Assembly (NCBI GenBank): GCA_018652595.1
Contig: JABIBU010000013.1
Location: 93,043 to 157,042 of the forward strand
From: Candidatus Magasanikiibacteriota bacterium
GTDB taxonomy: Bacteria; Patescibacteriota; Patescibacteriia; Magasanikbacterales; UBA922
Length of the DNA stretch: 64,000 nucleotides
Direction: 5' to 3'
In this document: in pieces, positions 14,434 to 51,444 of the stretch
Position numbering within the stretch: position 1 is the first letter of the stretch
Layout of the letters: every line of letters starts with the position of its first letter
Notes under the pieces: generated by a model
Seen by the model: only the letters and a program-made list of their open reading frames with translations
What the model was told of the DNA's origin: nothing
The model's database searches: none
Made by a program: the position numbers and the translations under genes

Positions 14434-15960
14434 TTATAAATTACTTAGATTTCCTTCTTTACTTACGCGCTGTGGAATAGATATTTTCTGGTCTCCCATG
14501 CTTACATTACCTGAATTACTAAAAGGTACAGTAATTGGTGATTTAACAATAAACTTAGCTTGGAAGTTATTAGATTTAAAACGCTTATCACTAGACTTAC
14601 TAGACACATAACGATAGGATCCTTCGTGATCACGATAGTAATATTTGTTATTTTTTCTAACTAGCGTACCTTTGGCATATTCATAAGTACCAGCACCTGC
14701 CTCAGTTATTGCACTTACCCCAACTGGTGAAAAACCACTGACCACTTCCACCCCGTCTTTAAAGCCATCATTATCACTATCATCGTCTACCGGATCAGAA
14801 AACCAATAAAAAATTTCTTCATAATCGGACAAACCATCAGAATCCGTATCTTTATTGTGATCACTAGAACCATATACATCTTCTGTGCTATCCTCTACTC
14901 CATCTTTATCGCTATCAGTATAATCTTCGTCTTCACCTAATAAATAGTGTGGATAATTGACTTTATAATAACTTTTTAAGACTAGATCTAACTCTAAAAT
15001 TCTGTTTGACCAATTTACCCCATAAATAAGACTGGCTTCTGCCTCTGAACGCAATAGTCTCAATTGGCAACCAGGTTCCACTGCATATACATGTGGCAAA
15101 CTTTTAAATTTTACCAACCAGGTACCCTGCCTCACACAAACAGGAGACCCAACTTTATATTGACTTAATTTTGAATTACTAACATATTGTATTTTGTCAA
15201 AATTTTCATGCCAAGAATGATAGATAGCACCATTGAAAAATGGATGGATCCTTCCATCATATCCCAAATAATAAACGGTGCTTACCTGCCCTTTGAGCAA
15301 GGTACCCTCTGAGATATAATAACCTGGCTGTTCATATCTAATTTCTTTTTTTATTGTTTTTGTCTCACCTCTGATATCCTTAAATTGAACAAATACTTCC
15401 TTGTCGCCAGTTTCTGCAGTTAAAATCCAGGCAGCAGTATCTTCTATCCACAACCAACTAGAATCTGAAAAATCGTTTGAATTGCTTATTCTAATTTTTT
15501 CTACTCCAGGTGACCAATCTAAATTTAATTGTATATAACGAGAATCAACAATCCCGTCACTCTCTTCGTCATCACCACCATCATCAACAATTTCGAAATC
15601 AACGGACATATTAATTGGTGAAGATAATAGTATATAATCCCGATAAATACCGGAAATATCGTTATCCTTGGTTTTAAATCGAACATATACAGTCTGATAC
15701 CCGCTACCATATTCCAAATACCATACTTTAGAAGTTTTGAAGGACTCCCAATTGGAACCGGAAAAATCAGCTATATTCGATATTCTCATCTCCTTAACAT
15801 TTTCTGGTCCTTTTAGGTATAGGTTTACTTTTCTAGCCTGAGTAGAAAGACTGCCTTTGTTAATTCGAACATATGGCTCTTCTACTGCCAAAACCCGAAA
15901 AACACCGCCAAAAACACAGGTAAATAAAATTAAGCAAAGAAAGACTTGATTTTTCTTCAT
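14434..15960 (-). CDS. Secreted protein with TSP3/dockerin-like acidic Ca-binding repeats
   Basis: Signal peptide and repeated DxDxDGxxD motifs (DSDGLSDYEE, DSDNDGFKDG). Confidence 0.45.
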   Translation of the reverse strand: MKKNQVFLCLILFTCVFGGVFRVLAVEEPYVRINKGSLSTQARKVNLYLKGPENVKEMRISNIADFSGSNWESFKTSKVWYLEYGSGYQTVYVRFKTKDNDISGIYRDYILLSSPINMSVDFEIVDDGGDDEESDGIVDSRYIQLNLDWSPGVEKIRISNSNDFSDSSWLWIEDTAAWILTAETGDKEVFVQFKDIRGETKTIKKEIRYEQPGYYISEGTLLKGQVSTVYYLGYDGRIHPFFNGAIYHSWHENFDKIQYVSNSKLSQYKVGSPVCVRQGTWLVKFKSLPHVYAVEPGCQLRLLRSEAEASLIYGVNWSNRILELDLVLKSYYKVNYPHYLLGEDEDYTDSDKDGVEDSTEDVYGSSDHNKDTDSDGLSDYEEIFYWFSDPVDDDSDNDGFKDGVEVVSGFSPVGVSAITEAGAGTYEYAKGTLVRKNNKYYYRDHEGSYRYVSSKSSDKRFKSNNFQAKFIVKSPITVPFSNSGNVSMGDQKISIPQRVSKEGNLSNL

Positions 15961-16023
15961 ATATATGCTAATATTAAATTGTTTTATGGTATAATTATAC
16001 CAAAAGTAACCACAAAATACAAT

Positions 16024-17412
16024 ATGAAAATTGTCTATAGGATAAAGCAGTTGATGTTAGGAAGTGGAGACTTCCTTGCTTTTGTTGTCGCATTTTGGCT
16101 AAGTCTAACAATTAGAAATTGGCAAATACCAAACTGGGAGAGACTTGAAGCTCATTTGAGCCTATTCTTCTTCCTTTTCTTGGTTTGGATAGTGGTCAAC
16201 TTTATTAATGGACTTTATGATTTGGGAAAGCTAAAAAATAAAGAAATTACTCGTCATTTTATAGAAGCCGGATTGATTTCACTAGTCTTAAGCTTTGTAC
16301 TCTCTTATATAATTCCGCACAAAGGTATCGAACCAAAAACAATTCTGATTTTGAATATTCTATTCGGATATATTCTTAGCTGGTCATGGCGACTAATCTA
16401 CAACAAATATATTGGACTAAAACGACTTAATAGCAATGTAATGTTTATTGGTTTCAATGAAGAAGCCAAGGAGCTTGTAGATATTTTACAAAATAATTTA
16501 GAGACTGGCTATAAAATTGCATGTCTAATTGATCCAGAAAACAAAGTGAAGTCTGTTGACTACCCATTTTTTGATGTTTATCACAATCTGAAGGCTATCC
16601 GACCAGCAGTGACTAATCATAGTATAGATCTGGTTGTAATTGCACCACACCTAAACAAACAAAAAGATACTTTGGGTGAAGTCTATGAGCTACTATTTTG
16701 GGGCACACAAATTTATGACATGCCAAATTTTTATGAAACAATCACTGGACGCATTACACCTTCTGTTTTTTCAGAAGGATGGTTTTTGGAAAACTTAAAA
16801 AATAAATATCACCCTATTTATGAAAAACTAAAAGCAGTTGTTGACGTAATAATCGGAATTATTATTGGCTTAATTACCATACTACTATTACCACTAATTG
16901 CTTTGGGCATAAAAACAAGCTCACCAGGTCCGATTTTCTACAAACAAAAAAGAATTGGCCAAGGAGGAGTAATATTTTCTCTTTATAAATTTCGCTCCAT
17001 GTATGCCCTAACAGATGACGGCGGAGCTGAGACAGGAGGGGCGCAATTTGCCATAAAAGATGACAAACGGGTAACTAGAGTAGGAAAATTTTTGAGAAAA
17101 TCTAGATTGGACGAAATACCTCAATTTATAAATCTTCTGAAACGTGATATCACCTTAATTGGGCCCAGACCAGAAAGACCTGAAATAGTGAAGCAACTAG
17201 AAAGCCAAATGCCATTTTACTCTCTTCGTCACATGGTAAAACCAGGACTAACTGGTTGGGCAGTGATTAACCAGCACTACACTGATACCTTAGAAAAATC
17301 TCTACAAAAAATCCAATATGACTTGTACTACATAAAAAATCAAGGCTTTCTGCTTGATTTATCAATACTGCTTAGAACAGTCAATGTTATTTTGAGAATG
17401 ATGGGACAATAG
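16024..17412 (+). CDS. Initiating polyprenyl-phosphate hexose-1-phosphate transferase (WbaP/WcaJ family bacterial sugar transferase)
   Basis: N-terminal TM helices plus a C-terminal bacterial sugar transferase domain (SPGPIFYKQKRIG..G..F.LYKFRSM...DEIPQFINLLKRDITLIGPRPERPE). Start set at MKIVYRIK (16024), because the track start overlaps the divergent gene. Confidence 0.85.
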   Translation: MKIVYRIKQLMLGSGDFLAFVVAFWLSLTIRNWQIPNWERLEAHLSLFFFLFLVWIVVNFINGLYDLGKLKNKEITRHFIEAGLISLVLSFVLSYIIPHKGIEPKTILILNILFGYILSWSWRLIYNKYIGLKRLNSNVMFIGFNEEAKELVDILQNNLETGYKIACLIDPENKVKSVDYPFFDVYHNLKAIRPAVTNHSIDLVVIAPHLNKQKDTLGEVYELLFWGTQIYDMPNFYETITGRITPSVFSEGWFLENLKNKYHPIYEKLKAVVDVIIGIIIGLITILLLPLIALGIKTSSPGPIFYKQKRIGQGGVIFSLYKFRSMYALTDDGGAETGGAQFAIKDDKRVTRVGKFLRKSRLDEIPQFINLLKRDITLIGPRPERPEIVKQLESQMPFYSLRHMVKPGLTGWAVINQHYTDTLEKSLQKIQYDLYYIKNQGFLLDLSILLRTVNVILRMMGQ

Positions 17413-17507: not shown

Positions 17508-18413
17508 TTAAGTGATATTCCATTCTTCTTTCAGATTTTTAATTCCCTCTTCAAGCCCTATCGTCGGTCCCCAATCTAGTAGTTTTTTTGCTTTAGTATT
17601 GTCAGCCTCTATAAATTTCATCTCACCTGGTCTTTCATCAACATTTACAGATTCACCACCAATCAATTCTGCTATTTCATTTACACTGGTTTGCACTCCT
17701 GAACCAATATTTACTCCCCTACCATCGCTGATATCTGACTGCCAAGCTTTGATATTAGCTTCTACCACATCACTAACGTAAACATAGTCTCTAGTTTGTT
17801 TTCCGTCACCAACAATTGTTAATTTCTCTCCTCTTTTCTTTTGTCCTAAAAATATTGGAACTACCATTGGATATGAACCAGTATCCAATTTACGAGGACC
17901 GAACACATTAAAATACCTTAGGCACACCGCGTCAAGATCAAATAGCTGGTGGAATAAACGACAATAATTCTCCCCCATTAATTTGTGAAGTGCATATGGG
18001 TTCATTGGATCTGTAGAATGTTTTTCTGTGATTGGTAATTTTTCTTGATCACCATAAATAGCACAAGAAGAAGAAAAAATTACCTTCTTAACATTTGACT
18101 CTTTGGCAGCTAGCAAAATATTTAAAGTGCCTGTTACATTAATCTCATGAGTACTTATTGGATCTTCAATTGAAGTTTGCAACCTAGGATCAGCGGCTAG
18201 ATGAAAGACAACCTCTACATCTTTAAATAATTTCTTAATTTTTTCTAGATTACGTATGTCTGCTTTGTAAAATTTTGATTGTTTATTAATAAATTCCTTT
18301 TTGCCGAGCATCAAATTATCTATGACTATAACATCATGACCTAATTCTATTAATTTGTCTACCAAATGTGAGCCAATAAAACCAGCCCCACCTGTTACCA
18401 AACATTTTGACAT
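17508..18413 (-). CDS. NAD-dependent nucleotide-sugar epimerase (GalE/UDP-hexose 4-epimerase-like)
   Basis: CLVTGGAGFIGSHLVDKL, a YxxxK motif, and 301 aa. Confidence 0.75.
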   Translation of the reverse strand: MSKCLVTGGAGFIGSHLVDKLIELGHDVIVIDNLMLGKKEFINKQSKFYKADIRNLEKIKKLFKDVEVVFHLAADPRLQTSIEDPISTHEINVTGTLNILLAAKESNVKKVIFSSSCAIYGDQEKLPITEKHSTDPMNPYALHKLMGENYCRLFHQLFDLDAVCLRYFNVFGPRKLDTGSYPMVVPIFLGQKKRGEKLTIVGDGKQTRDYVYVSDVVEANIKAWQSDISDGRGVNIGSGVQTSVNEIAELIGGESVNVDERPGEMKFIEADNTKAKKLLDWGPTIGLEEGIKNLKEEWNIT

Positions 18414-18426: not shown

Positions 18427-19818
18427 TTATTTTTTAGCTTTTAAAAATGGAGAACCCACAGCAACAATATTAAATCCGGCATTTTGCAAATCTTCATAGC
18501 GATGCTGAAGCATGCGACGACCATCCATTATAAGTGGTTTTTTATTCCCAACCCTTTCAAGAATAAGATCACCGAGGGATTTAAACTGTGGCCAATCAGT
18601 AGCAATAATAACAACATCGCAATCTGATAGAGCCTCTAATTCGCTATCTTTATATTTAATTGTTTTAGATTCTGGAAAAACTTGCTTGAAGTATTCCATC
18701 GCAGCTGGATCAAAAATACTAACTTCACTAATACCATTATCATTTAAAAAATGCATGATGTCAATACTTGGTGAGTTGCGAATGTCATTTGTATCGCGCT
18801 TGAAGGCAACACCGAGTAAAGCAACCTTCTTATCCTTCCAATTGAAATTAGCTTCATTTTTTGCTCTGCTAATAAATAATTCCAACTGTCTTTTGTTTCC
18901 CTGATATATTTCATTCACCAATGAAGCATCTGTGCCTGAAGTTTGTAACTGGTGAGACAGCGATCTAATGTCTTTTACCAGGCAACTACCACCAGCATAT
19001 AGACTGTCAAAAAATCCCCAATTACCTATCCTCTTGTCTGTAACCAAGACATTTCGGATATTTTCAAATTTTAAATCTTCAAAAGTTTCACAAGTTCTAC
19101 CTATTACATCATAACAGGCAATTAGCTTGTAAGCTAAATAAAAATTAGCCAATAACTTGCTCGCTGCTGCCTCTTTTGGATTGATCTCGATATAACTTAC
19201 TGTTGGAGAATTATAAAATCTCTCATAAACCTCTCGCATAATTTTAAAATCCTCTTCTTTCCAAGCACCGACGACAACTCTATCAGGTTTTAGGGAGCCT
19301 TGCACAGCCTTTCCTTCTACCAAAAATTCTGGATTAGAAACTACACCATAATTTTTAACCCCGGCCTTATCCATTATCTCTTGGGTCTTGTCTACCATAT
19401 CAATCGGCACAGTGCTTTTATTAACTATGACAATATATTTATCCTGCTTTTTTTTATTTCTATTTAGCAATGCTTGAGATAATTTATCAGCAGCATCAAA
19501 ATAATAGTTCAAATTACTCTCGCCGGTTTCACCAATCTCTGGGGTTGGCAGACACATAAAAATAGCACCACATACATCCAAAAAACTCTCAACTTTTTTA
19601 TAATCGGCAGTAAATTCAATACGTTCTTTGTTACGCACAAGAAGATCTCCCAGACCTTCTTCAAAAAGACAAGACTCTATCGTGCCCCGATCACCGGAGG
19701 AAAGCATTTTAATTTTTTTCTCATCTATATCATAAACAAGGACATTGTGTCCAGAAGAGGCTGAGATAGCCGCTGAGCAGGCTCCCACGAAGCCCGAACC
19801 TATATATAGTATGTTCAT
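18427..19818 (-). CDS. Nucleotide-sugar dehydrogenase (UDP-glucose 6-dehydrogenase family)
   Basis: N-terminal NAD-binding IGSGFVGA, a central catalytic Cys region (GGSCLVKD), and a C-terminal UDP-binding domain. 463 aa. Confidence 0.8.
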   Translation of the reverse strand: MNILYIGSGFVGACSAAISASSGHNVLVYDIDEKKIKMLSSGDRGTIESCLFEEGLGDLLVRNKERIEFTADYKKVESFLDVCGAIFMCLPTPEIGETGESNLNYYFDAADKLSQALLNRNKKKQDKYIVIVNKSTVPIDMVDKTQEIMDKAGVKNYGVVSNPEFLVEGKAVQGSLKPDRVVVGAWKEEDFKIMREVYERFYNSPTVSYIEINPKEAAASKLLANFYLAYKLIACYDVIGRTCETFEDLKFENIRNVLVTDKRIGNWGFFDSLYAGGSCLVKDIRSLSHQLQTSGTDASLVNEIYQGNKRQLELFISRAKNEANFNWKDKKVALLGVAFKRDTNDIRNSPSIDIMHFLNDNGISEVSIFDPAAMEYFKQVFPESKTIKYKDSELEALSDCDVVIIATDWPQFKSLGDLILERVGNKKPLIMDGRRMLQHRYEDLQNAGFNIVAVGSPFLKAKK

Positions 19819-19822: not shown

Positions 19823-20950
19823 TTATTTGCATATAACCTTATTATACAATTCTTCTGTTTTTTTTAACATTTTATCTATTGAAAATTCACTTAAAACCTT
19901 TTCTATAGAGACAGCTCCCATTTTTTCTCTCAATCTTTTATCAATAATTAATTTTTCCAAAGATTCCTTTAATTCTTCAGCAGAATTATTTTTTAATAAA
20001 AATCCATTTATACCATCTTCTATAATTTCTCCAACTCCCCCCACATCTGAGGCAACTACGGGCAAACCAAAACTCATTGCCTCTAAAATTGTCATTGGTA
20101 GCCCCTCATACTTGGAGACTAGAACAAATACATCCGATTCATTCACCATATCAAAAACCTGATCCCTAGACAAGCTTCCTAATAAATTTACATTTTTAAC
20201 TTTATTTTGTACTATAAATTTTTCTAATTCAATTTTCTTTGGACCACCACCTATTATAATTATCTCTGACTTTTCTTTCAGTTCATTGGATAATTCCTCG
20301 TAAGCTTTTACTAAAATAATAGGGTCTTTAGGCTCTGCTAATCTGCCAACAAAAACAATCTTAATTTTTTCATTGACTTTAGACTTTTTACTTTTCAGAG
20401 AATACTGATGCCCTGTGGGTATGACTTTTGACTTAATTCCATTATATATAATTTCAAACTTTTCTTTTTTTGCTATCTTATTTTTTATTCCCAATTTTCT
20501 AACAAATTCTGAGACAGTAATTATTTTAACAGAGTACTTAGATACAAATTTTTCAGCAAGAATTGCAATTTGCTTTTGCAAAAAAGGTACCCCAATATTA
20601 AAACCCCAACCGTGGGCAGTGAATATAGTTGGAATTTTATTTCTAGTAGTCAAACGCCCAATAAAACCAGCTCCAGAACTATGGCAGTGTACGATGTCCG
20701 GATTAAATTCTTTTACAATGTTTTTTACCAATTTTATAGCTTTGAAAACCTTGAAAGGATTTATACTATTAGAAAAATATTTGTTTGAGACAAATTTGAT
20801 ATTCAAATCTTTAGACTGATCCTCCAGCCAGCCCCCAGGAAACGACATTAAAACCACTTCATTTTTCTTACCAAAATACTTACACAATTCATAAACATGT
20901 GATTGTGCCCCACCAGCCTCTGATTTTGTTATTAAGTACAAAATTTTCAT
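19823..20950 (-). CDS. GT4-family glycosyltransferase
   Basis: EGLPMTILEAMSFGLPVVASDVGGV motif in a GT-B C-terminal domain. Confidence 0.8.
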   Translation of the reverse strand: MKILYLITKSEAGGAQSHVYELCKYFGKKNEVVLMSFPGGWLEDQSKDLNIKFVSNKYFSNSINPFKVFKAIKLVKNIVKEFNPDIVHCHSSGAGFIGRLTTRNKIPTIFTAHGWGFNIGVPFLQKQIAILAEKFVSKYSVKIITVSEFVRKLGIKNKIAKKEKFEIIYNGIKSKVIPTGHQYSLKSKKSKVNEKIKIVFVGRLAEPKDPIILVKAYEELSNELKEKSEIIIIGGGPKKIELEKFIVQNKVKNVNLLGSLSRDQVFDMVNESDVFVLVSKYEGLPMTILEAMSFGLPVVASDVGGVGEIIEDGINGFLLKNNSAEELKESLEKLIIDKRLREKMGAVSIEKVLSEFSIDKMLKKTEELYNKVICK

Positions 20951-21747
20951 CTCTTAGAAATTTTTAAATAATTAATTAATCTCGACAATTTTAAAAAAAC
21001 TAAAAATCCTTTTACTCTCCATTTTAAAACACCCAAAATATAATTGGGGTATTCCTTTTTATATTTTTTAATTAAAATAATATTAGCCCTTATTTGTTTC
21101 AAATTATTTTTTTGAGTTACACCTTCTTGATTAAGCAAATAGCCAGTACTATATTCTGGAATATTGGCTAATTTGTGTTTTTTACCCATTTTCAACCACA
21201 GAGCATAATCCTCCACATATTCTTGGCTTTCATTATAATTACCACATTCATTGGCGACACTCTTTCTAAATAAAACACTGGAATGAACAAAACAATTTTT
21301 TAATAATATTTTTTGTTTAATTTTTTCAAAATCCGTGTCATGAGTAATTTTAAAAAGTTCAACTACTTTTTCATTATACACTTTTGCCCAAGTCCCAACC
21401 AAGGCATAGTCTGTATTATTGTCTAGAAAATCAACTTGTTTTTTTAATTTTTCTTTATCTATCCACCAGTCATCACTATCAATTCTAGCAATATACTCGC
21501 CCTGTGCCAAATTAATGCCCTTATTCAAATTGAAGAGGAGTCCTTTATTTTCTTCATTTTTTATATAAATAATTCTGCCATCATCAAAGCCTTTTACAAT
21601 CTCTTCTGTGTTATCCTGTGAACTATCATCAATTATAATAAACTCAAAGTTATCATAACTTTGCGACAACACGCTCTTAATTGCCTTTCCTATGTATCCA
21701 GAATCATTATAGGTGGACATTACTATAGACACTTTTTTTTTCATCAT
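20947..21747 (-). CDS. GT2-family glycosyltransferase
   Basis: VSIVMSTYNDSGYI...IIIDDSSQDNT...DSDDWW (GT-A DxD). Confidence 0.8.
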   Translation of the reverse strand: MMKKKVSIVMSTYNDSGYIGKAIKSVLSQSYDNFEFIIIDDSSQDNTEEIVKGFDDGRIIYIKNEENKGLLFNLNKGINLAQGEYIARIDSDDWWIDKEKLKKQVDFLDNNTDYALVGTWAKVYNEKVVELFKITHDTDFEKIKQKILLKNCFVHSSVLFRKSVANECGNYNESQEYVEDYALWLKMGKKHKLANIPEYSTGYLLNQEGVTQKNNLKQIRANIILIKKYKKEYPNYILGVLKWRVKGFLVFLKLSRLINYLKISKR

Positions 21748-22595
21748 ATTCTAATCCAATCAGAAGGTATTAAATCTTTTGTATCAATTTTTGAAGCTAC
21801 CAACCAACGACTTGGTGCTATCACAATTTTTTCATTATTTTTGTTTAGCCATGCTGACCACCAACTAAATGTACTATTAGCAATTATCTGATGTTTACAC
21901 AAACTCATAAGCAACAATTCCTCAACAGCACCCAGTGTTGGACGAGAAACAAAAACCATAGGGACATCAAACTTAAAATTTTCCTTAGCCCATTGAATGT
22001 CATCAGAGAAAATAAATAATTTTATGTTGGAGTGTTTTTTATTTATTTCTGCTATAGCCTTTCTATAATAATCTACAGAACAGAGACCGTTCCAATCTTT
22101 GCAGGAAGTAACATAGTCTCCCCTACGCACATGAATTGCCACAGACTGCTCAGATTCTTCAATCTCTTTTTTTAGACCCTCAGCCTCAACACCGTAACCA
22201 TTTTTTAAAACAAAATCATTGAGCAATTTTTCTCTAATAGGGTTAAGGTACTTATAGCTCTGAAAATATCCATCCAATAAAATATCTTTCCGCCTCTTTA
22301 GCAGGTGAGGATGGAATGTGAAAAAATAATTCCTATTAAAACGCCCGTTAATTCTCTCCAATATTTTTCTAATTGGGTTTGGTTTTACACTAGACACTTC
22401 TGACACATTTGCCTTATCAAATACAATATTGAATGCACCTATTTCAATCTCTCTTGGTGTCTCCCCTTTTCTCACCTCATCAAACCAAGAGAAGTCAAAT
22501 TTTAATTTATCCTGCCAATCCAAAGACAAGCGCCTACCAAGAGCATATTGAAACATTTGATTTCCCAAACCAGCCTTAACCTTTACTACAATCAT
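21744..22595 (-). CDS. Alpha-1,2-fucosyltransferase (GT11)
   Basis: GT11 motifs GLGNQMFQYALGRRL and HVRRGDY, with length about 283 aa. Confidence 0.85.
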   Translation of the reverse strand: MIVVKVKAGLGNQMFQYALGRRLSLDWQDKLKFDFSWFDEVRKGETPREIEIGAFNIVFDKANVSEVSSVKPNPIRKILERINGRFNRNYFFTFHPHLLKRRKDILLDGYFQSYKYLNPIREKLLNDFVLKNGYGVEAEGLKKEIEESEQSVAIHVRRGDYVTSCKDWNGLCSVDYYRKAIAEINKKHSNIKLFIFSDDIQWAKENFKFDVPMVFVSRPTLGAVEELLLMSLCKHQIIANSTFSWWSAWLNKNNEKIVIAPSRWLVASKIDTKDLIPSDWIRI

Positions 22596-22604
22596 AAGAG
22601 ATAG

Positions 22605-24752
22605 CTAAGATTTATTCTTTGCCTGTTCATCTACCCACTGATAAGTCTTTCTTATGCCTTCTACGAGCGGTTGCGATGGTTTCCATCCCATTTTTTCTTC
22701 AAATAAAGTATTATCAGAATTTCTTCCTCTTACTCCTTGTGGCCCATCAATATGTTTGATACTTAATTTTTTTCCAGCAATTTCTGCGGTCATATCTGCC
22801 AACTGATTAATTGTTACCATTTCTTCAGATCCAATATTTACTGGCTCTTTAAAGTCTGAATCCATCAAACGTCTAACAGCCTCTAAACATTCATCTATAT
22901 ACAGAAATGATCTTGTTTGTTTTCCATCTCCCCACATCTCTATTTCACCACCATCAGGCACCTCTGATACTTTTCTACAAAAAGCAGCAGGCGCTTTCTC
23001 CCTGCCACCTTTCCAAGTTCCTTCTGGTCCAAATATATTGTGAAATCTTGCAATTCTCACATTTAAACCATAATTTTTTGCACAAGCCAAATAAAATCTT
23101 TCGCTGAACAGTTTTTCCCAGCCATATTCGCTATCAGGTTGCGCTGGATAAGCAGTATCCTCACCACATTTTGGGTTGTCTGGGTCCTCTTGGTTAAATT
23201 CTGGATACATACAAGCAGAAGAAGAATAAAATATCTTACCAACTTTCATATCACTTGCTCTTTTGGCAATATTTAAATTAATCAATGCCGAATTATGCAT
23301 AATATCTGCATCATTGTCCCCAACAAAAACAAAACCAGCACCCCCCATATCAGCTGCCAATTGATAGACTTCGTCGAAAGGCTTATCTAAAACCTGCTCA
23401 CACACCTTAGGATCTCTCAAGTCACCCACAACAAAATCATCTGCTTGTGTCTTTGCAAATTCATGCTGTTTTAAATCAACCCCCCTGACCCAATACCCCT
23501 CTTTTTTCAATCTTTTAACCAAATGCCCACCTATAAACCCACCTGCCCCACAAACCAACGCTGTTTTAGTTTTGTCCATATGAAGTAAATTAATTTTAAA
23601 TTTAGATAATTTTCTTATTATTTTTTTATAATTTAGTTTTATTTTGGCCGATAACTCATATGGCCAGTTCCTATTCATACATGGTTTTTCAACCAAAATA
23701 AAATATATTGCACTTATAACCAAAATAGGTACTATTAGAATTATAGTTTGGAGTAAAATATTTAATTCATAGTTAGATGATATATTCCAAAAAACAGTTG
23801 TGTTACCGAAGCCTGAAATAACAACTGTATGAAATAGATAGATAGTGTAGCACATTCCACCTATCGTCGTAAATAGCTTATTACTAAATATACGACGCCA
23901 AATTGATGAGGTCAATACTATATAAATAAAAACAAATAATAGTGTAACAAATACTAATTTGTTAAAAAGTGGTACTATGTCAATAATATACAAAACAGAA
24001 AATGACAACATACCGACAAATAAGGCTAACTTGTCATTTAGTTGATATTTTTCTTCTGTAATATAAAGATCTGCAATCAAAAAACCTACTAAAAAATAAA
24101 AGAGGTAGTTATAAAGTGAAATATGTTGGGATACTAGAAATACATTAACAATTGGAATACCTAGTATAGCCACAATCAACAACAGTCTACGCTTAAACTT
24201 GTCGATATAAAACACGCTTGCCAAAATCGGAGCTACCAAATAAAACTGAACTTCTACCTCCAATGTCCAAGTTATATTTCCAATCATTGGTTGAATTTCA
24301 AGCCAAGCAAAATTTTGTAAATAAGCCAAATTAAAAAACAAACCATTCACCAAATCACCCAATGGATAAACCCCCTTAATTACATGTAAAGTAAAAAAAA
24401 TTAATAATGCTATAAAATATGGTGGCTCCAATCTGGATAGTCGGCGGTAATAATAACTTTTCAAATTGGGTTTTTTTCCATCTGCCAAAAAATACTTTAC
24501 GAAGGGTAATGCTAAAATAAAACCACTAATAATGAAAAAAATTTCAACTCCTTTAAAACCATTATTAAACAGATCATACAAAACATTTTCGTAATTGTAT
24601 ACAGAATGTGTTTTTGCAACAAAAAACAATTGGATATGATAAAGTATAACCACCATAACTGCCAAAAAACGAAGACCATCTATTTCTGGAATAAAATTCC
24701 CAGATGACGTTTTTCTCTTTAATTTATTGTATAAATAAAGTTTTAGATTCAT
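22605..24752 (-). CDS. In-frame fusion (or read-through pair) of an acyltransferase-3 family membrane O-acyltransferase with an NAD-dependent sugar epimerase/dehydratase
   Basis: The N-terminal ~390 aa carry about 10 TM helices typical of acyltransferase_3. The C-terminal ~320 aa have GAGGFIGGHL and YxxxK. An internal Met (MDKTKTALVCGAGG) sits at the junction but no stop separates the two halves. Confidence 0.6.
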   Translation of the reverse strand: MNLKLYLYNKLKRKTSSGNFIPEIDGLRFLAVMVVILYHIQLFFVAKTHSVYNYENVLYDLFNNGFKGVEIFFIISGFILALPFVKYFLADGKKPNLKSYYYRRLSRLEPPYFIALLIFFTLHVIKGVYPLGDLVNGLFFNLAYLQNFAWLEIQPMIGNITWTLEVEVQFYLVAPILASVFYIDKFKRRLLLIVAILGIPIVNVFLVSQHISLYNYLFYFLVGFLIADLYITEEKYQLNDKLALFVGMLSFSVLYIIDIVPLFNKLVFVTLLFVFIYIVLTSSIWRRIFSNKLFTTIGGMCYTIYLFHTVVISGFGNTTVFWNISSNYELNILLQTIILIVPILVISAIYFILVEKPCMNRNWPYELSAKIKLNYKKIIRKLSKFKINLLHMDKTKTALVCGAGGFIGGHLVKRLKKEGYWVRGVDLKQHEFAKTQADDFVVGDLRDPKVCEQVLDKPFDEVYQLAADMGGAGFVFVGDNDADIMHNSALINLNIAKRASDMKVGKIFYSSSACMYPEFNQEDPDNPKCGEDTAYPAQPDSEYGWEKLFSERFYLACAKNYGLNVRIARFHNIFGPEGTWKGGREKAPAAFCRKVSEVPDGGEIEMWGDGKQTRSFLYIDECLEAVRRLMDSDFKEPVNIGSEEMVTINQLADMTAEIAGKKLSIKHIDGPQGVRGRNSDNTLFEEKMGWKPSQPLVEGIRKTYQWVDEQAKNKS

Positions 24753-24762
24753 TACATCTTGA

Positions 24763-25689
24763 TTATCTGACTAATTCTAAAAAATTTTCTGCAATAACCC
24801 TGTTTGAAAAATTTATTTTTGCGTACTTTCTAGGAGAAAATGTATTAGATTCACTTAAAAAGACATTCCATTTATTTACAAAATCATCAAAATCTTTAAA
24901 AAACAGGCCAGATTGCTCATTTAAATAAGGTGCGCCTATCTTATTATCTTCCCAATAATTACCGCCGTAGGACCAGTATCCCCTATTCCATACTATTGTC
25001 GGCACATCTTTCATCCAAGCCTCGCACAAGGCTATACCCTGACTTTCTGACTCTGACAAGCATATCATAACCTTAGCACTGTCCAAAAGTTTTAAGTATT
25101 TTTTATGGGTATAAAAACCGTACTTTATAACTTCGCAAGGAGTATTATTTTTATCAAAAAAATCAACAATCTTTTTAGATAGATCCTGATCATCGTTTTT
25201 CTTATACAATAATATTTTATTCTTCTTCTGATTGATCAATGGATATACATCCACACCAACAGCCCAAACTATAATCTTGTCCTTTATGCCTGGCTTTATG
25301 CTAACCCAGAAATCCTTGACCCACTTAGATGGGGCTATAACAATATCAATGCTTGTATCACAAATAACACTATTCTTTTCATCAGGAGAAACCACCATCA
25401 CCGGACCTACAATTAATTTCTTGATCTTCTTATTCTTTTTTGCATCTATTGCCCATTTGAGTGCTTCATAACTAGCATTTACATATACAATATCATCTTC
25501 GTGTATATCACCAACATTTATATTATATTTATACTTATAACCAATCTCACGGAACCCCTTCATAAGGCTATCCGTTACGAGGTCTTGGCCTCTTTTTTGC
25601 CCCAACAAAAATTTGACAAATAATTTGAAACTTTTCATTGAGTCATTCCAATTGTAGACTGGTGATTTTGTCAAAATTACTAAGGACAT
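24763..25689 (-). CDS. Hypothetical protein, possibly a GT-B-like glycosyltransferase
   Basis: ESQGIALCEAWMKDVPTIV resembles the GT1/GT4 E-x7-E region. Otherwise unrecognised. Confidence 0.35.
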   Translation of the reverse strand: MSLVILTKSPVYNWNDSMKSFKLFVKFLLGQKRGQDLVTDSLMKGFREIGYKYKYNINVGDIHEDDIVYVNASYEALKWAIDAKKNKKIKKLIVGPVMVVSPDEKNSVICDTSIDIVIAPSKWVKDFWVSIKPGIKDKIIVWAVGVDVYPLINQKKNKILLYKKNDDQDLSKKIVDFFDKNNTPCEVIKYGFYTHKKYLKLLDSAKVMICLSESESQGIALCEAWMKDVPTIVWNRGYWSYGGNYWEDNKIGAPYLNEQSGLFFKDFDDFVNKWNVFLSESNTFSPRKYAKINFSNRVIAENFLELVR

Positions 25690-25706
25690 AAAATAATTTA
25701 TTTACT

Positions 25707-26759
25707 TTAAATATTTTTTCTAAAATATTTAATTTTTAAATTTTCTAATAACTTTATTTTTTTGAATGGTTTATAAAAGAAAGCAAATATTTTTCTTATA
25801 CCAAGGGTCACGATTGCATACTTTGCCACAACCCTTTCATTCTTCTCTAGATTTAGCAATTTTACAGGATTAATAGTACTCCTCTTGGCAAAAGACAGCT
25901 TCTGATCAAATATTTGTCTCAAAAAAACTTCAAAACCCTGATTAACCCTATCAAAGCTGTAATTTTCAGCCATAATTGGCTCATTGACAATTTGTAAGTA
26001 CAAATCATCATTTTCATCTATATCCTTTATTCTTTCGACAACTTCATCAAAACTGCCGTAATCATGGCAATTGATGATTCTACTTTTATTAAACTCACGG
26101 CCTATTTCAGGATTACCCCAATAAATAGGTATGGTATTCGCCACCAAAGATGTGACAATTTTTTCTGTTGTATAGCCCAAGCGAGAAGAATTTTCAAATG
26201 CAATTGAAAACTTATGTTTCAATTCAAATTCTAATTTGTTACCTACCCTACCTCCAATATTATTTAGATAACCTCCACCAGCATTAACTTTTTTGTAACT
26301 ACTAAGTTTATCAAAAAATATTTTACGCGTAGTGTCTGCTAAATAATTTGAGTACACAAAACTACAAAAATCTGACTTGCCAACCAAGTCATCTTTTGTA
26401 TACACTATTGGTTTATTAAAATCAAAACCACCGGCCATCTCCTTTTCACCCTCATTATAAAAAGTAGCCATCATGTAGACAGGAAACCTATAGTATCTAT
26501 CCTCAAAATTCATATAATCACAGCCTATCGCATAATCACACAAATTAAAATTTGGGGAAATATTTTCTCCAGTATAAAATATTTTTACACAATCATACTC
26601 TAGATGTTCGTAAGTCGACTCATGATAAAATAAATAGTCTGGGTCTTCTGAAAACTCAACATCGTAATACTTTTCTAATATCTTTAGAACTAGAAAACCA
26701 AAATGTGTAGCCTCACTTTTATCATCAAAATCACAGATTTTAATTTTAATTTTTTTCAT
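25707..26759 (-). CDS. Alpha-1,3(/4)-fucosyltransferase (GT10)
   Basis: GT10 motifs FCSFVYSN...R and IAFENSSRLGYTTEKI (FxxxFENSxxxxYxTEK), with length 350 aa. Confidence 0.75.
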   Translation of the reverse strand: MKKIKIKICDFDDKSEATHFGFLVLKILEKYYDVEFSEDPDYLFYHESTYEHLEYDCVKIFYTGENISPNFNLCDYAIGCDYMNFEDRYYRFPVYMMATFYNEGEKEMAGGFDFNKPIVYTKDDLVGKSDFCSFVYSNYLADTTRKIFFDKLSSYKKVNAGGGYLNNIGGRVGNKLEFELKHKFSIAFENSSRLGYTTEKIVTSLVANTIPIYWGNPEIGREFNKSRIINCHDYGSFDEVVERIKDIDENDDLYLQIVNEPIMAENYSFDRVNQGFEVFLRQIFDQKLSFAKRSTINPVKLLNLEKNERVVAKYAIVTLGIRKIFAFFYKPFKKIKLLENLKIKYFRKNI

Positions 26760-26775
26760 AGTATTTTATATAAAT

Positions 26776-29517
26776 TTATTTTACCTTATAAAGATGCAGC
26801 CCACTTCCGCTATTACTTAGCTCTGTATATTTTTCTTCTATTATTTTTTTAATCCTGATATCAAAAATATTATAATATTCCAAAGGACTTTCTACAAAAA
26901 TCTTAGTATCATTTTCATTTTCCAACAAATCAATTATCAAATTCATCTCACCAGAGAAAGGGATATCGGCAATAGAGGTTGTATCCACTATAGAGCGTGT
27001 ATTACTTTCGGCGTAATAAACGCCCTGATTAGGAGAACTCAGTATAAATATACTTTCTTTCTCATATGTATTTTCTTTTATAAAGTTAATATTTTCAAAA
27101 TAAGCAGACTCCTTTACACCAAACGATGAAACACCCGAACTAACAAAATTAAAATATTTATTTATATTAAAAAATAAACTAAATGGCGCCGAAAGAAGAA
27201 CGTAAAAAATACAAATAAACAGAATTGCTTCCCCATAGTTACCCCGCCCATGCTCCTTGATTCTATGCCACAGTACATCTGCAAAAATTACAAGTAGTAT
27301 CAATGCTGGGTATGATGTTCTAAACAAAGTAGTGTCGCTGGACTGCCCTTCGTAATAACTAAAAAGCCCAACACCTAGAATAGACAAAAATAATATTATC
27401 CTTTCAATATAGTTCGCATTCTTTAGAACAAATGATCTTACAGAGATTAAAATTCCAATCAAATATATTAAAATAACTACACTCCACATATGTGGTGGTG
27501 GTATCATTTTAATCATTAAATAACCTGACAAGAATATCTTTTGATACTGTAATAAAAAAGAAACACTAGGTAATTGCCCACTATTCAAATAGGTGACAAA
27601 AATGAAATAACCAGTGACCAAAAATAAAGCGACAGATCCCACCACAAAGTGTTTTAGCATCTTCACAATCTTAACTTTCCATATACTATCTTTTACTAAC
27701 TCATTATAAAACAAGACTGCCAGCCATGATAAAAACACCACAACACCAACATCAAAATTCCACAAAATACCGATAGAAAAAAATAAGAAAGAAATATAGT
27801 ACAAAAATCTACTATTATTTTTAAAGTAACTTACCACCAAAAATATACTTAGACAAGGAAATACATATCTAATAGGCCAATATTGAAAGTAATATTCTGG
27901 TACAGCCCTAGTAGCCAATAAGGAATAAAAAATTGTACTAAAAAATCCCAAAAATAATAGTAGTTTATTTTTTATTATTTTATACATTGAGCCAAATAAA
28001 AAGAATACTGATATAACCATTAAAAAAGCCATGACCACAGAAAATTTTAAAACACTCAAACCAACAACCTTGAATATGGGTGCTAAAAAGAATGCGTATA
28101 GACCATAAAAACTAGCTAGATTAACCAAGAGACTCTTACCTGCCATAACTTGACTAACTGGATATAAAACAGGATCAAATGTATAAGCATCAAAATAGTT
28201 TGTCAGATTAAAGACATTCATGAAAAAAACTAAAGTAAAAATAAAAAAAACTAAGATAAATAGGGTATTTTTTATTCCTTTTGAGAGATTATCATTTGCA
28301 AAAAACACCAAAAGAAACAAAGGAAATAATATTAAATTAAAAAGGTACTTACCAACTCCACTAAAATAGAAACTATCCTGTATGTAATAAAAACCAGTCA
28401 TAGCCAAACCAAGATAGACCACTGAAAAAATAAAGAAAATACTGACCCCAACCACTCTTGGGTAATATTTTTCTACAAACTCTTCTGTTCTAGATACTTT
28501 TTTATTAAATAAAGCATAAAAGAACCACAAAACAAAAGGAGAGGTTATGCTACTTAAAATAAATTGCAATCTTTCGACCGGTTTTGGTCTAAAATTTTTA
28601 TAAAAATAATCCAAATAATCACCGGAAAGCCCATTCAAAATTTCAGATATATCTGGTTTATAAAAATAATACACAAAATAATTTAAAATAAATAATAAAC
28701 CAACTGTGGAAACAATAGTGATAGAAAAAACAATAAACTGTCTTTTATATGAACTAGGTCTATTAGTAGGGCAATCTATTTGCCCATTACCCAAATATAA
28801 AAACATGACCCTCAAAATCAACCCGAATATAAAAAATATTGAAATCAAAATTAATGCAGATACAAATGGTTTAATAAGTATCTTATCATCGCCACTCCAA
28901 TTTATTAGGCTTCCAAAAAAACTCTTATAAATTGGTATTTTTGATCTGCCCAAACTAACCTCCTCAGGAGCTTCCAATACCAGAAAGCTATCATAATCTT
29001 CGACCTGCAACTCTGATTTAATTAAAGATTTATCAAAAACATGCCAATCTTTTTTTATTTGTTCTCCGCTAAAATGAAAAGGTTTATCACCAATCCATAT
29101 ATCCAAATTGGCCAAAACAGAAAGATCGTCTTCATTGAGACCAAGCAAAATCTTTTTCATAAAAACACCATCTACTGTCCATCTCTTATCTAGATTTTGA
29201 TTGGGTCTTATATATGTATAATTACCAGACCTAGCCAGTTGCATATATCTTTTTAAAGAATCTATCTCTTTACCTTGTACATCAGTCGCCTCAATCCTTA
29301 CTGGCTCAATTATTTGCCGACTACCAACCACAGAGATCATCTGACCAGCAAAAAATACCAAAAAAAATAAAATAAGTAATAAAACTCCCACTTTATACTC
29401 TTTTTTAAAAACCTTAAAAATAGAATCTGCAAATGATCTATTATAAATTATTTTCTTGAATTTTTCCAAATCAAATAGGTCTTTTTTCATAGTATATAAC
29501 ACATCTCTATTTACCAA
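26776..29517 (-). CDS. Very large polytopic membrane protein (more than 20 TM). Candidate glycan polymerase or GT-C glycosyltransferase.
   Basis: 913 aa, almost entirely hydrophobic helices, with a soluble C-terminal domain. The alternative start MKKDLF (29490) avoids the 11-nt overlap. Confidence 0.45.
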   Translation of the reverse strand: MVNRDVLYTMKKDLFDLEKFKKIIYNRSFADSIFKVFKKEYKVGVLLLILFFLVFFAGQMISVVGSRQIIEPVRIEATDVQGKEIDSLKRYMQLARSGNYTYIRPNQNLDKRWTVDGVFMKKILLGLNEDDLSVLANLDIWIGDKPFHFSGEQIKKDWHVFDKSLIKSELQVEDYDSFLVLEAPEEVSLGRSKIPIYKSFFGSLINWSGDDKILIKPFVSALILISIFFIFGLILRVMFLYLGNGQIDCPTNRPSSYKRQFIVFSITIVSTVGLLFILNYFVYYFYKPDISEILNGLSGDYLDYFYKNFRPKPVERLQFILSSITSPFVLWFFYALFNKKVSRTEEFVEKYYPRVVGVSIFFIFSVVYLGLAMTGFYYIQDSFYFSGVGKYLFNLILFPLFLLVFFANDNLSKGIKNTLFILVFFIFTLVFFMNVFNLTNYFDAYTFDPVLYPVSQVMAGKSLLVNLASFYGLYAFFLAPIFKVVGLSVLKFSVVMAFLMVISVFFLFGSMYKIIKNKLLLFLGFFSTIFYSLLATRAVPEYYFQYWPIRYVFPCLSIFLVVSYFKNNSRFLYYISFLFFSIGILWNFDVGVVVFLSWLAVLFYNELVKDSIWKVKIVKMLKHFVVGSVALFLVTGYFIFVTYLNSGQLPSVSFLLQYQKIFLSGYLMIKMIPPPHMWSVVILIYLIGILISVRSFVLKNANYIERIILFLSILGVGLFSYYEGQSSDTTLFRTSYPALILLVIFADVLWHRIKEHGRGNYGEAILFICIFYVLLSAPFSLFFNINKYFNFVSSGVSSFGVKESAYFENINFIKENTYEKESIFILSSPNQGVYYAESNTRSIVDTTSIADIPFSGEMNLIIDLLENENDTKIFVESPLEYYNIFDIRIKKIIEEKYTELSNSGSGLHLYKVK

Positions 29518-30208
29518 ATCTTAATTTTAAAATTGTAATAACATAAGTTATAGCAAATAAAAATAAATTTCTCTTTGTCTTACCAAATTCTCTTTTTTTA
29601 AATGTGTATGGCAATTCAAGAAATTTTATACTTTTATTTTTTTTCTTCAACTTAAACATTATCTCCTCTACAATATCAAAGTTATTGCAATTTAGAGACA
29701 AGTCTTTTAGTTGGTCTGATCTATACAATTTAAAACTGTTAGAAACATCTTTGCATTTCAAATTTAATATTGATGAATATAAAATATTAATAGCAAGGCT
29801 CATCAAAATCAAAATTTTGCTATTTTCAGTATTACCACCCTTTACATAACGGGAAGCAATAACAACATCAGCGTCGTTTCTATGAGAATAGAGTTTCTTT
29901 ATAAATTCAGGTGAATGCGAACCATCTGCATCCATAAAGACAAAAAATTCTCCTGTTGCATTTTTTATACCAGTCCTTATCGCGTCTCCATAATTATTTC
30001 CATTATCTCTATTTAGATAGACTACAGAATTATCTAAGCAGATATCTTTTGTGTCATCCATTGCGCGCAATGTATCCACAACTATAATCTCATAATTTAT
30101 ATTTAGTTGATTCAACCCATCTTTTATTTTGGGTAATATAACAGATAAATTTTCTGCTTCTTGATAAGCTGGTAGGACTACACTAAGTTTTATTATTTTA
30201 TTTTCCAT
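29507..30208 (-). CDS. GT2 polyprenol-phosphate glycosyltransferase (GtrB/DPM1-like)
   Basis: LSVVLPAYQEAENL...VVDT...FMDADGSHSP. Confidence 0.8.
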   Translation of the reverse strand: MENKIIKLSVVLPAYQEAENLSVILPKIKDGLNQLNINYEIIVVDTLRAMDDTKDICLDNSVVYLNRDNGNNYGDAIRTGIKNATGEFFVFMDADGSHSPEFIKKLYSHRNDADVVIASRYVKGGNTENSKILILMSLAINILYSSILNLKCKDVSNSFKLYRSDQLKDLSLNCNNFDIVEEIMFKLKKKNKSIKFLELPYTFKKREFGKTKRNLFLFAITYVITILKLRFGK

Positions 30209-30216
30209 AAACTATT

Positions 30217-31245: not shown

Positions 31246-31251
31246 AACTTT

Positions 31252-47656: not shown

Positions 47657-48547
47657 TTATTTGAGCACTCTTTTTATACCCCTGTACAGTTTGCCCGCAG
47701 ACTTTCTTGAATAACTATATGCAACATTGAATGGTAGCAAAAGTGTAAGGAAAAACGAAGGCTTTTCTTTTGTGTTATACGGAGGCTTGTAGATCAAATC
47801 AGAACTATCTAAATTTGATAGTTCATAAAACATTGGTGTCTCCATCCCCTCTTTGACAACCAGGCTTTTTCCATCTTGGCTTTTTGAATATTTTTTATCA
47901 AAAAACTCATTATTAACTGCGGAATATTTTCCAACACCTCCATCTGTTTTTTCTGATATATTTGCCCATCCAGCATTTTCTTGGGGTGCAACATAGTTAA
48001 CTATCCCATGACAGACAAATTCGGGAACATCTTTTCCTTTTGCCAAAATACGATTTATATAATCGCCATCTTCCTGCCCAGTACCCAACAGTCTCTCCTC
48101 AAACCAGCCAACCTCTTTCATAAAACTCTTTGAAATTAAGAAGTGGCTCCAACTCTTATTAATTATAAAAAATGAACTATTGTTTTCTAAAACTTTTTCA
48201 AATTGTTTTCTAAATAATAAATTCAAGCTAACATCATCATTGATAATCAAGGATCTTTTTGCAAAAGACATCATTGCGATCCAATTAAAGCATTTTGCGA
48301 GAGACTGATGCTTCTCATTTGTAATATAATGAACATTGGGAAATTTGTTCAAAAAAGCTGTAACCTGCTTTAGATAATTGATCTGCAACGCCTCGTCATG
48401 ATGGCCATTGATAATACAGATGATTTCTTTGTCAGGAAAAACCTCAACCAACTGATTAATTAGAGGTATAAAAAATTCTTCAAATCTCGCTACATAGGTA
48501 ACAACCCCAATAGAATATTCAAGATTTATCTTTTTTTTATTACTCAT
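47657..48547 (-). CDS. Hypothetical protein, possible divergent glycosyltransferase
   Basis: No recognised motif except a DxD-like LGTGQEDGDY. Its placement inside a glycan operon suggests a glycosyltransferase. Confidence 0.3.
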   Translation of the reverse strand: MSNKKKINLEYSIGVVTYVARFEEFFIPLINQLVEVFPDKEIICIINGHHDEALQINYLKQVTAFLNKFPNVHYITNEKHQSLAKCFNWIAMMSFAKRSLIINDDVSLNLLFRKQFEKVLENNSSFFIINKSWSHFLISKSFMKEVGWFEERLLGTGQEDGDYINRILAKGKDVPEFVCHGIVNYVAPQENAGWANISEKTDGGVGKYSAVNNEFFDKKYSKSQDGKSLVVKEGMETPMFYELSNLDSSDLIYKPPYNTKEKPSFFLTLLLPFNVAYSYSRKSAGKLYRGIKRVLK

Positions 48548-50493: not shown

Positions 50494-51444
50494 TTATTGA
50501 TTTTTGAACCACTCATAACTCAATTTTACCCCCTCTTCCAGGTCAATCTTGTGTTTCCAGCCCAAATCATGCATTTTACCCATATCCAAGAGCTTGCGGG
50601 GAGTTCCATCTGGCTTGGAAGTATCCCAGACAATCTCACCCTCAAACCCAACTACTTTTTTGACTATTTCTGTCAATTCCTTGATGCTCACATCCTCCCC
50701 CACACCCAAATTCATGAAAATCTCTCCTTTTTCATTCTGGGCCTCATTTGGATCAAAATTATTCATAATAAATACAGATCCACCAGCCATATCATCCACA
50801 TAGAGAAATTCGCGTTTTGGACTGCCTGTACCCCAAGCTATGACTTCCTTATCCCCTTTTTCTTTGGCCTCATGGAACTTTCGGACTAATGCTGGCAATA
50901 CATGAGAGGTTTCTAAATCAAAATTGTCCCCCGGACCATAAAGGTTTGTTGGCATTACTGCAATAAAATTTGTTCCGTACTGTCGATTGTAGCTCTGGCA
51001 CATCTTAATACCAGCAATTTTGGCCAAAGCATACGGTTCGTTTGTCGGCTCGAGCAATCCAGTGAGCAGATACTCTTCTTTCATTGGCTGTGGGCACATC
51101 TTGGGATATATACAAGAAGAACCCAAAAATAATAGCTTCTTGATGCCGTTCAAATATGCTTGATGGATAATATTATTTTGAATCTGCAAATTTTCATAAA
51201 TAAATTGTGCCGGATAGGTATTATTAGCCATTATTCCACCAACCTTGGCAGCTGCCAAAAACACATACTCGGGTTTTTCTGCAATGAAAAAATCAGTAAC
51301 AGCCTTTTGATCTAATAAATCCAACTCTGTGTGAGTTTTTACAACTAGATTAGTGTATCCATCTGATTCTAATTTGCGAACAACAGCAGAACCAACCAAA
51401 CCTCGATGGCCTGCAATATATATTTTTGCATTTTTATCCATCAT
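50494..51444 (-). CDS. fcl: GDP-L-fucose synthase (GDP-4-keto-6-deoxymannose 3,5-epimerase/4-reductase)
   Basis: [38 protein letters not shown] and [12 protein letters not shown] are near-identical in pattern to E. coli Fcl. Confidence 0.9.

Follow-up and report, generated by a model that had tools for sequence, protein, structure and literature searches.

Within a 64,000-nucleotide stretch of Candidatus Magasanikiibacteriota DNA (assembly GCA_018652595.1, contig JABIBU010000013.1, positions 93,043 to 157,042; hereafter the window), a surface-glycan locus of the Wzx/Wzy type carries two genes whose products are bona fide members of glycosyltransferase (GT) families GT10 and GT11 in the CAZy classification. 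Both genes probably encode functional inverting GT-B transferases for GDP-L-sugars, which would act on a glycan of the cell's own envelope and would not build a Lewis mimic. The likeliest function of the pair is to place L-fucose, and possibly L-galactose or O-acyl-L-galactose, on a Wzx/Wzy-assembled surface glycan or a protein-linked glycan of the cell itself. These are well-known transferase families in a surface-glycan locus, and their pairing is common across the Patescibacteria, or candidate phyla radiation (CPR), and in that sense ordinary. The coupling of the GT11 gene to a gene for GDP-mannose 3,5-epimerase (GME), and the fusion of that epimerase to an acyltransferase, provide a testable lead to a native L-galactosyltransferase. 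Enzymes of this kind are explicitly called for in reviews of GME, with the synthesis of L-sugar glycosides in view (PMC8787198).

The GT10 and GT11 enzymes and their pairing

The GT10 protein carries the motifs FCSFVYSN and FENSSRLGYTTEK and matches FucT_N (PF18025) with 98.8 bits (E=2.5e-28, cut-off 27.2) and PF00852 with 59.3 bits (E=5e-16, cut-off 23.9). It matches the α1,3-fucosyltransferase of Helicobacter pylori (HpFucT; 2NZW) with an E-value of 3e-42 and 44% identity over 205 aligned residues. In this alignment, residues E65, R145, N190, Y196, E199 and K200 correspond to HpFucT E95, R195, N240, Y246, E249 and K250, of which Arg195, Asn240, Tyr246 and Lys250 are donor-binding residues. 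Glu95 of HpFucT has been proposed as the catalytic base and Glu249 as a residue that stabilises the oxonium intermediate (PMC4202792). The six catalytic and donor positions of the window enzyme are invariant in its relatives or, in 3 of 22, conservatively replaced by D or R. The window protein shares the two-domain GT-B architecture of HpFucT/FutA (PDB 2NZW, 5ZOI), which pairs FucT_N with a GT10 C-terminal domain; both proteins have a basic C-terminal tail, and the Arg/Asn/Tyr/Glu/Lys set that binds the donor is conserved along with the catalytic Glu. It differs from the H. pylori enzyme in that its 350 residues include no DDLRINY heptad repeats and its gene has no phase-variable homopolymer tract, and also in its origin from a CPR host, where it is placed inside a Wzx/Wzy operon; the fut genes of H. 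pylori are scattered in the genome.

A scan of species-representative genomes yielded 41 Patescibacteria (CPR) loci, as well as 39 that come from Firmicutes and Bacteroidales of the gut, and flanks of up to 10 kb were examined. Seven CPR loci (L019, L021, L023, L027, L029, L035 and L046) and seven non-CPR loci encode both GDP-mannose 4,6-dehydratase (gmd) and GDP-L-fucose synthase (fcl) no more than 10 kb from the GT10 ortholog. The gmd and fcl orthologs near GT10 are mostly 58-71% identical to those of the window, with fcl reaching only 41-42% in L027 and L029. Because gmd and fcl adjoin GT10 orthologs, this context fits a fucosyltransferase, and the GT10 enzyme is predicted, most likely, to add α1,3(/4)-linked L-fucose.

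The GT11 protein carries GLGNQMFQYA and HVRRGDY and matches PF01531 with 114.4 bits (E=8e-33, cut-off 23.9). An alignment of 20 sequences shows four groups of invariant residues: the N-terminal GxGNQMFxY motif (G9, G11-F15 and Y17), the donor motif (H155, R157, R158 and D160), and two C-terminal groups (S197, D198, D199 and W202; N240, S241, F243, W245 and W246). WbsJ depends critically on the first Arg of HxRRxD (PMC4202792). The likeness to WbsJ of Escherichia coli O128, WbwK of O86, WbiQ of O127 and H. pylori FutC was established through the GT11 Pfam match and the motifs, not by direct alignment; the motifs common to the O-antigen-cluster enzymes and the window protein are GxGNQxFxYA, HxRRxD, SDD..W and STFSWW. 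The O-antigen GT11 genes and the window gene are also alike in lying in a surface-glycan cluster with a GT2 gene next door, and in E. coli the equivalent GT2 makes the β-Gal acceptor (PMC4202792). They differ in the gene immediately upstream, which in the window encodes GME and not gmd or fcl, and the donor of the window enzyme may differ as well, being possibly GDP-L-galactose.

Searches of the PDB with the single GT11 protein and with a 20-sequence profile found no solved GT11 structure by sequence. The AlphaFold2 model of the protein (pLDDT 89.3, pTM 0.89) was compared with solved structures using Foldseek, and the top PDB matches are NodZ, POFUT1, FUT8 and AtFUT1 (E-values of 8e-7 to 1e-4, TM ~0.5). 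All four are GDP-fucose-dependent GT-B enzymes, and only enzymes of this kind head the list of structural matches. We interpret the GT11 protein as a putative inverting GDP-L-sugar transferase whose donor sugar would be L-fucose and/or L-galactose, with a presumed α1,2 linkage. Membership in GT11 does not fix the linkage, as Hh0072 of Helicobacter hepaticus belongs to this family and is an α1,3-fucosyltransferase (PMC4202792).

An initial annotation of the window had recognized both open reading frames (ORFs) by their motifs. Both assignments hold on the minus strand, and proper alignment places all the HpFucT residues, the catalytic Glu and Arg among them, in the GT10 protein. The α1,2 and α1,3 labels attached at that stage stand as family assignments, while as linkages they are family-level guesses, given the example of Hh0072. 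The genome had been called CPR-like; the lineage indeed belongs to the Patescibacteria/Parcubacteria group, and the identical GT10 protein in GenBank comes from Candidatus Magasanikbacteria. The interval drawn around the two transferases (21744-26759) does contain both, but two further genes inside it had been overlooked, one for a GT-B-like protein and one for the acyltransferase-3/GME fusion. Similarly, gmd and fcl are both present in the interval assigned to them (50494-53420), which also holds an unrelated ORF of 296 residues. The latter was considered as a third transferase and rejected, having no Pfam, NCBIfam or PDB match.

The pairing itself, which had been singled out as notable in a CPR-like genome, turned out to be ordinary there. 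Of the 41 CPR loci, 29 have a GT11 gene no more than 10 kb from GT10, versus 1 of the 39 non-CPR loci, and the pairing is thus a recurrent CPR cassette, not peculiar to this genome. The usual order of the cassette is GT10 - GT-B-like - GT11 - GT2, as exemplified by the complete Wolfebacteria genome CP011209 (locus L008); the GT-B-like gene follows GT10 in 23/41 CPR loci, and GT2 is found downstream of GT11 in nearly all CPR loci. Metagenome-assembled genomes of Patescibacteria are rich in homologues of both enzymes (55-69% identity for GT10 and 45-69% for GT11), the contigs of relatives include ones labelled Hainich groundwater, and the window locus, which is found on a 170-kb contig of GCA_018657365.1, recurs in several independent assemblies. 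Public records name this GT10 and close GT11 relatives as fucosyltransferases or family-10/11 glycosyltransferases. The cassette offers a handle on the surface chemistry that episymbionts show their hosts and phages, in a group whose glycosylation is still called unexplored (PMC11623550).

Comparison by synteny defines a conserved core, GME-GT11-GT2-GT4-UGDH-SDR(-Bac_transf), where UGDH denotes an enzyme of the UDP-glucose/GDP-mannose dehydrogenase family, SDR a short-chain dehydrogenase/reductase, and Bac_transf the initiating phosphoglycosyl transferase. The closest relative, L172 (GME 86%, UGDH 88% and Bac_transf 84% identical), keeps the core without the ~12-kb GT10 block. This block, at 24700-37200, includes GT10, a 913-residue membrane protein and a GT-D enzyme; it is absent from the otherwise syntenic L172 locus, and its GC content of 0.29-0.32 is the minimum of the window. 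It looks like a variable glycan-island module. Insertions of another kind are also seen in syntenic CPR glycan loci, namely AbiEi/AbiEii-type toxin-antitoxin genes in L167 (1237-2941) and L172 (12264-13676).

GDP-sugar supply and the donor of the GT11 enzyme

GME makes GDP-L-galactose, with some GDP-L-gulose, from GDP-mannose, and L-galactose is 6-hydroxy-L-fucose. The window encodes this predicted activity in addition to the enzymes of GDP-L-fucose synthesis. The gmd product matches TIGR01472 with 589.6 bits (cut-off 415), and the fcl product matches NF047922 over its full length with 497.2 bits (E=1.9e-149), 3 bits under the cut-off of 500. The fusion protein consists of an N-terminal acyltransferase-3 membrane domain (residues ~22-349) and a C-terminal GME domain (residues ~390-715). 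The latter aligns with Arabidopsis GME (2C59) at 338.8 bits (E=3.5e-100), with 52% identity over 308 residues, and the next SDR family after GME scores 93.6 bits. Cys145, Lys217, Ser143/Tyr174/Lys178 and Arg306 (Arabidopsis numbering) are all identical, and the GxxGxxG motif is kept; in GME the first two are catalytic, the next three form a triad, and Arg306 plays a supporting part (PMC6678494). The window domain, aligned on 2C59, resembles the Arabidopsis enzyme and MfGM35E of Methylacidiphilum fumariolicum in its full catalytic set, but differs from both in carrying an N-terminal acyltransferase-3 domain of ~390 residues and in its location within a CPR glycan operon. What bacterial GMEs do physiologically is so far a matter of hypothesis only (PMC6678494, PMC8787198).

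GDP-L-galactose can serve as the donor for several fucosyltransferases, as seen in vitro and in the mur1 mutant of Arabidopsis (PMC8787198). Because such acceptance is known, and because gmd/fcl and GME are both present, the locus supplies two possible donors for GT10 and GT11. The accepting enzymes include AtFUT1 (one of the solved structures that the GT11 model matches), AtFucTA, mouse FUT8 and Lewis fucosyltransferases, all of them GDP-fucose-dependent GT-B enzymes (PMC8787198). For these enzymes the transfer of L-galactose is known as a side activity or from a mutant, whereas the conserved coupling of GME to GT11 seen here suggests that L-galactose could be a native donor sugar.

The same acyltransferase-GME fusion is present in L017 (724 residues) and in protein P0241, and the two activities are encoded by adjoining separate genes in L093, L167, L168, L170 and L174. 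Since they are fused or adjoining across relatives, the acyltransferase and epimerase functions are, as judged from gene arrangement, linked. The fused architecture is rare, with two other fused clusters among the best 120 matches. In the L002 assembly, a TAT-to-TAG nonsense change splits the fusion just after the epimerase NAD-binding motif (L002 13180-13340; window ~23490). A homopolymer slip was considered as the cause of this split and rejected, the difference being a single substitution. The change, which probably inactivates the epimerase, reflects variation within the population or else an error of sequencing.

Because GME is encoded between GT10 and GT11, the GT11 enzyme might transfer L-galactose rather than fucose. 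Stated in full, the boldest reading is that the GT11 protein and its subclade would be natural GDP-L-galactose-dependent α-L-galactosyltransferases, genetically coupled to a GME that is fused or adjacent to an O-acyltransferase; we assign it a probability of roughly 0.4. If it is true, many Patescibacteria would display L-galactose or O-acyl-L-galactose on their surface, and the GT11 enzyme would be, as far as the literature that we found shows, the first native bacterial L-galactosyltransferase, with the first physiological role assigned to a bacterial GME. A literature search for Patescibacteria fucosyltransferases or bacterial L-galactosyltransferases returned nothing relevant.

The subclade of the window GT11 was defined at an identity of at least 50% and includes 24 informative loci. 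In 16 of them the strand of GT11 also carries a true GME ortholog (66-86% identical) no more than 3 kb upstream, and no gmd+fcl pair occurs in the examined flanks, of up to 10 kb, of any subclade locus. More distant GT11 genes (33-42% identity) are often near gmd/fcl (L099, L108, L110, L114, L122, L124 and L133). In a second GT11 clade, which comes from low-GC freshwater contigs and shares ~35% identity with either group, the GME and GT11 genes overlap; this clade lacks orthologs of the remaining core transferases of the window and of its GT-B-like, GT2 and GT4 genes. GT11 is, across two clades ~35% identical, the sole transferase that stays beside GME. A sister of the second clade, L123, 78-80% identical to it, has a gmd-like gene in the place of GME. 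In L142 (3279-5125), and likewise in L119, L139, L141 and L145 (27-32% GC), the second-clade pair is found amid GT17, DUF3431, radical-SAM and methyltransferase genes.

A possible correlate of GME coupling was sought in the GT11 sequences, where attention fell on the loop that follows HxRRxD (residues 161-170), the least confident part of the model. The first sample showed CKxWN in 9/9 GME-adjacent loci, and Y-types were mostly GME-less. In an out-of-sample test of Trp168 on 10 further GT11 homologues picked by loop type, GME was found in 3/3 W-N types but also in 3/5 Y-N types, and Trp168 was rejected as a marker of GME coupling. A column-wise search that compared GME-linked with gmd/fcl-linked GT11 sequences gave a sole separating column, located in that same indel-prone loop. 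Asn169 is present in 16/16 GME-adjacent subclade enzymes and in 5/5 of the second clade; among nine GME-less relatives, this position is occupied by Asn in four, His in four, and Val in L123. Were L-galactose the donor sugar, Asn169 would help to accept its 6-hydroxyl. The surviving correlation, between Asn169 and GME, is a weaker one; it is post hoc and partly reflects shared ancestry, and it is to be read as a hypothesis and not as evidence of specificity.

Several observations weigh against L-galactose as the donor sugar. Both transferases have access to GDP-fucose, since gmd and fcl are encoded in the window, and eight of the 24 subclade loci have no adjacent GME. In other organisms GME is fused to GT2, GT4 and GT26 domains, and other families can hence use GME products; the window GT2 is 34% identical to one such GME-fused GT2 domain. 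Whether the window GT2 and GT4 are orthologs of the fused domains was also examined: the window GT2 shares 20% identity with another GME-fused GT2, the window GT4 shares 21% with a GT4 fused to GME, and identities of 20%, 21% and 34% are not decisive. Synteny within a clade is partly inherited and is not independent evidence. The failure of Trp168 as a candidate marker of specificity counts against it as well. A plainer explanation is that both enzymes are fucosyltransferases, α1,2 and α1,3, fed by gmd and fcl, and that the GME product goes to the GT-B-like, GT2 or GT4 enzyme, resulting in a glycan with two fucose linkages and a separate L-galactose or L-gulose residue. The presence of all family motifs, the gmd and fcl genes of the locus, the GME fusions to other transferase families, the GME-less third of the subclade and the more distant GT11 genes that adjoin gmd/fcl all agree with it. 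Against it stand the persistence of GT11 alone beside GME in two divergent clades and the lack of a gmd+fcl pair in the examined subclade flanks, and in L123 the switch from GME to a gmd-like gene coincides with an Asn-to-Val change beside the donor motif. We consider this explanation possible, with the odds against it.

Assembly, carrier and the comparison with Lewis antigens

The overall explanation that we consider more likely than not is a proposed pathway in which two GDP-L-hexoses would be derived from GDP-mannose: GDP-L-fucose through gmd and fcl, and GDP-L-galactose (with some GDP-L-gulose) through the GME fusion. A lipid-linked repeat unit would be begun by Bac_transf and extended by the GT2 and GT4 enzymes, and the GT2 encoded directly downstream of GT11 may build the acceptor. 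GT10, from the variable low-GC module, would most likely add α1,3(/4)-L-fucose, and the residue added by GT11, from the conserved core, would be α-L-fucose, with α-L-galactose a plausible alternative. This residue may then be O-acylated by the acyltransferase part of the fusion. Wzx would flip the unit and the Wzy_C protein with tetratricopeptide (TPR) repeats would polymerise or transfer it, giving an envelope glycan or a glycoprotein glycan of the cell's own.

The last step depends on the Wzy_C family, which includes O-antigen ligases, O-oligosaccharyltransferases and polymerases. The window member, with its TPR repeats, could act as an O-oligosaccharyltransferase of the PglL/PilO type and put a short lipid-linked oligosaccharide on proteins such as pilins or the S-layer, in which case the L-fucose/L-galactose caps would decorate surface proteins. 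A type IV pilus-type ATPase gene is present in the window (6714-7748), and pilin O-glycosylation has been predicted in Saccharibacteria (PMC11623550), both of which speak for a protein carrier. We nonetheless regard this variant as unlikely: no target protein or sequon was identified, and the 913-residue membrane protein could be a separate polymerase.

Far less probable is the formation of Lewis X/Y-like epitopes on an N-acetyllactosamine (LacNAc) backbone as mimics of host glycans, which the initial annotation had put forward by analogy with FutA and FutC of H. pylori. The analogy has a basis in the two CAZy families, which are the same as in H. pylori, and a β-galactoside acceptor could, in principle, be the product of the GT2 whose gene has a 4-nt overlap with the GT11 stop; however, a Pfam scan of the window ORFs of at least 120 residues matched no GT25- or GT7-type β1,4-galactosyltransferase that would supply LacNAc. 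The features associated with the H. pylori genes are also missing, as neither transferase gene has an A/T run of 8 or more, a C/G run of 6 or more, or a DDLR repeat. The cassette is instead conserved and widespread across environmental Patescibacteria, including the Hainich-labelled contigs, and the locus makes many non-Lewis sugars, and L-galactose, as well. Every cultivated member of the Patescibacteria is an episymbiont of another microbe (PMC11623550), and these microbial partners are not known to carry Lewis antigens. The same annotation had offered a heavily fucosylated surface as an alternative to mimicry; a fucosylated surface glycan is reasonable, whereas mimicry is not supported.

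Layout of the locus and neighbouring genes

The glycan locus spans ~15.9-55.5 kb of the window (~40 kb), lies nearly all on the minus strand, and encodes at least nine glycosyltransferases, among them GT2, GT4, a GT-D fold enzyme, GT10 and GT11 (Table 1). Intergenic gaps of -11 to +17 nt separate the genes between GT2b and SDR17, and this stretch, GT10 and GT11 included, is an operon on that account. The 913-residue polytopic membrane protein, which has no Pfam or NCBIfam match, is a candidate polymerase or GT-C-like enzyme.

Table 1. Genes of the glycan locus discussed in the text, with window coordinates
Feature	Position	Strand	Basis or remark
GT10 glycosyltransferase, 350 aa, FucT_N + GT10 C-terminal domains	25707..26759	-	Pfam, 2NZW match, conserved residues
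GT-B-like protein	24763..25689	-	Weak Glycos_transf_1 match, Pfam E=1.4e-5, under cut-off
Acyltransferase-3/GDP-mannose 3,5-epimerase fusion, 715 aa	22605..24752	-	Pfam; 2C59 match, 3.5e-100
GT11 glycosyltransferase, 283 aa	21744..22595	-	Pfam, motifs, AlphaFold2 model
GT2 glycosyltransferase, conserved downstream partner of GT11	20947..21747	-	Pfam, synteny
GT4 glycosyltransferase, conserved core	19823..20950	-	Pfam; 47-51% orthologs at same position
UDP-glucose/GDP-mannose dehydrogenase family enzyme (UGDH), conserved core	18427..19818	-	Pfam, synteny
GalE/TviC-like SDR epimerase (SDR17), conserved core	17508..18413	-	Pfam, NCBIfam, synteny
Initiating phosphoglycosyl transferase (Bac_transf)	15946..17412	+	Pfam 8e-58; 84% ortholog in L172
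913-aa polytopic membrane protein, directly upstream of GT10	26776..29517	-	50-53% orthologs in L093, L169
GT2b	29507..30208		Upstream end of tightly packed gene run
Wzx-type flippase	48544..50082	-	Pfam Polysacc_synt / Polysacc_synt_3
GDP-L-fucose synthase (fcl)	50494..51444	-	NCBIfam NF047922
296-aa ORF, acidic, HD-like motifs, between gmd and fcl	51449..52339	-	
GDP-mannose 4,6-dehydratase (gmd)	52368..53420	-	TIGR01472
Wzy_C membrane protein (O-antigen ligase/polymerase/oligosaccharyltransferase family), C-terminal TPR repeats	53437..55461	-	Pfam

In addition to gmd and fcl, the sugar genes of the locus encode RmlC, RmlD, a nucleotidyltransferase, a DegT enzyme, a GFO/IDH oxidoreductase, an RmlB-like dehydratase fused to a C-methyltransferase, a split transketolase and a second C-methyltransferase; C-methylated and amino sugars as well as CDP/dTDP deoxy sugars are thus further products of the locus. 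An unusual deoxy-sugar gene set occupies 35904-47007 on the minus strand and includes the DegT enzyme, the nucleotidyltransferase and several SDRs. Within it are found the stand-alone C-methyltransferase (35904-37184), the split transketolase (39409-41195), and the fusion of C-methyltransferase and RmlB-like dehydratase (44698-47007). This set suggests branched or C-methylated sugars.

At the Bac_transf end, the locus is flanked on the minus strand (12453-15960) by genes for a subtilase with FG-GAP repeats and a TSP3-repeat protein. Pfam gene calls place a TSP3-repeat gene after Bac_transf in L172 and a subtilase/FG-GAP gene after Bac_transf on the P0127 contig; a tblastn search with the window subtilase and TSP3-repeat protein found no ortholog of either in L172. 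Just upstream of the glycan locus and outside it, the minus-strand genes at 55655-61760 encode a 1266-residue ORF without a Pfam match, a DUF5667 protein, and an extracytoplasmic function (ECF)-type sigma-70 factor.

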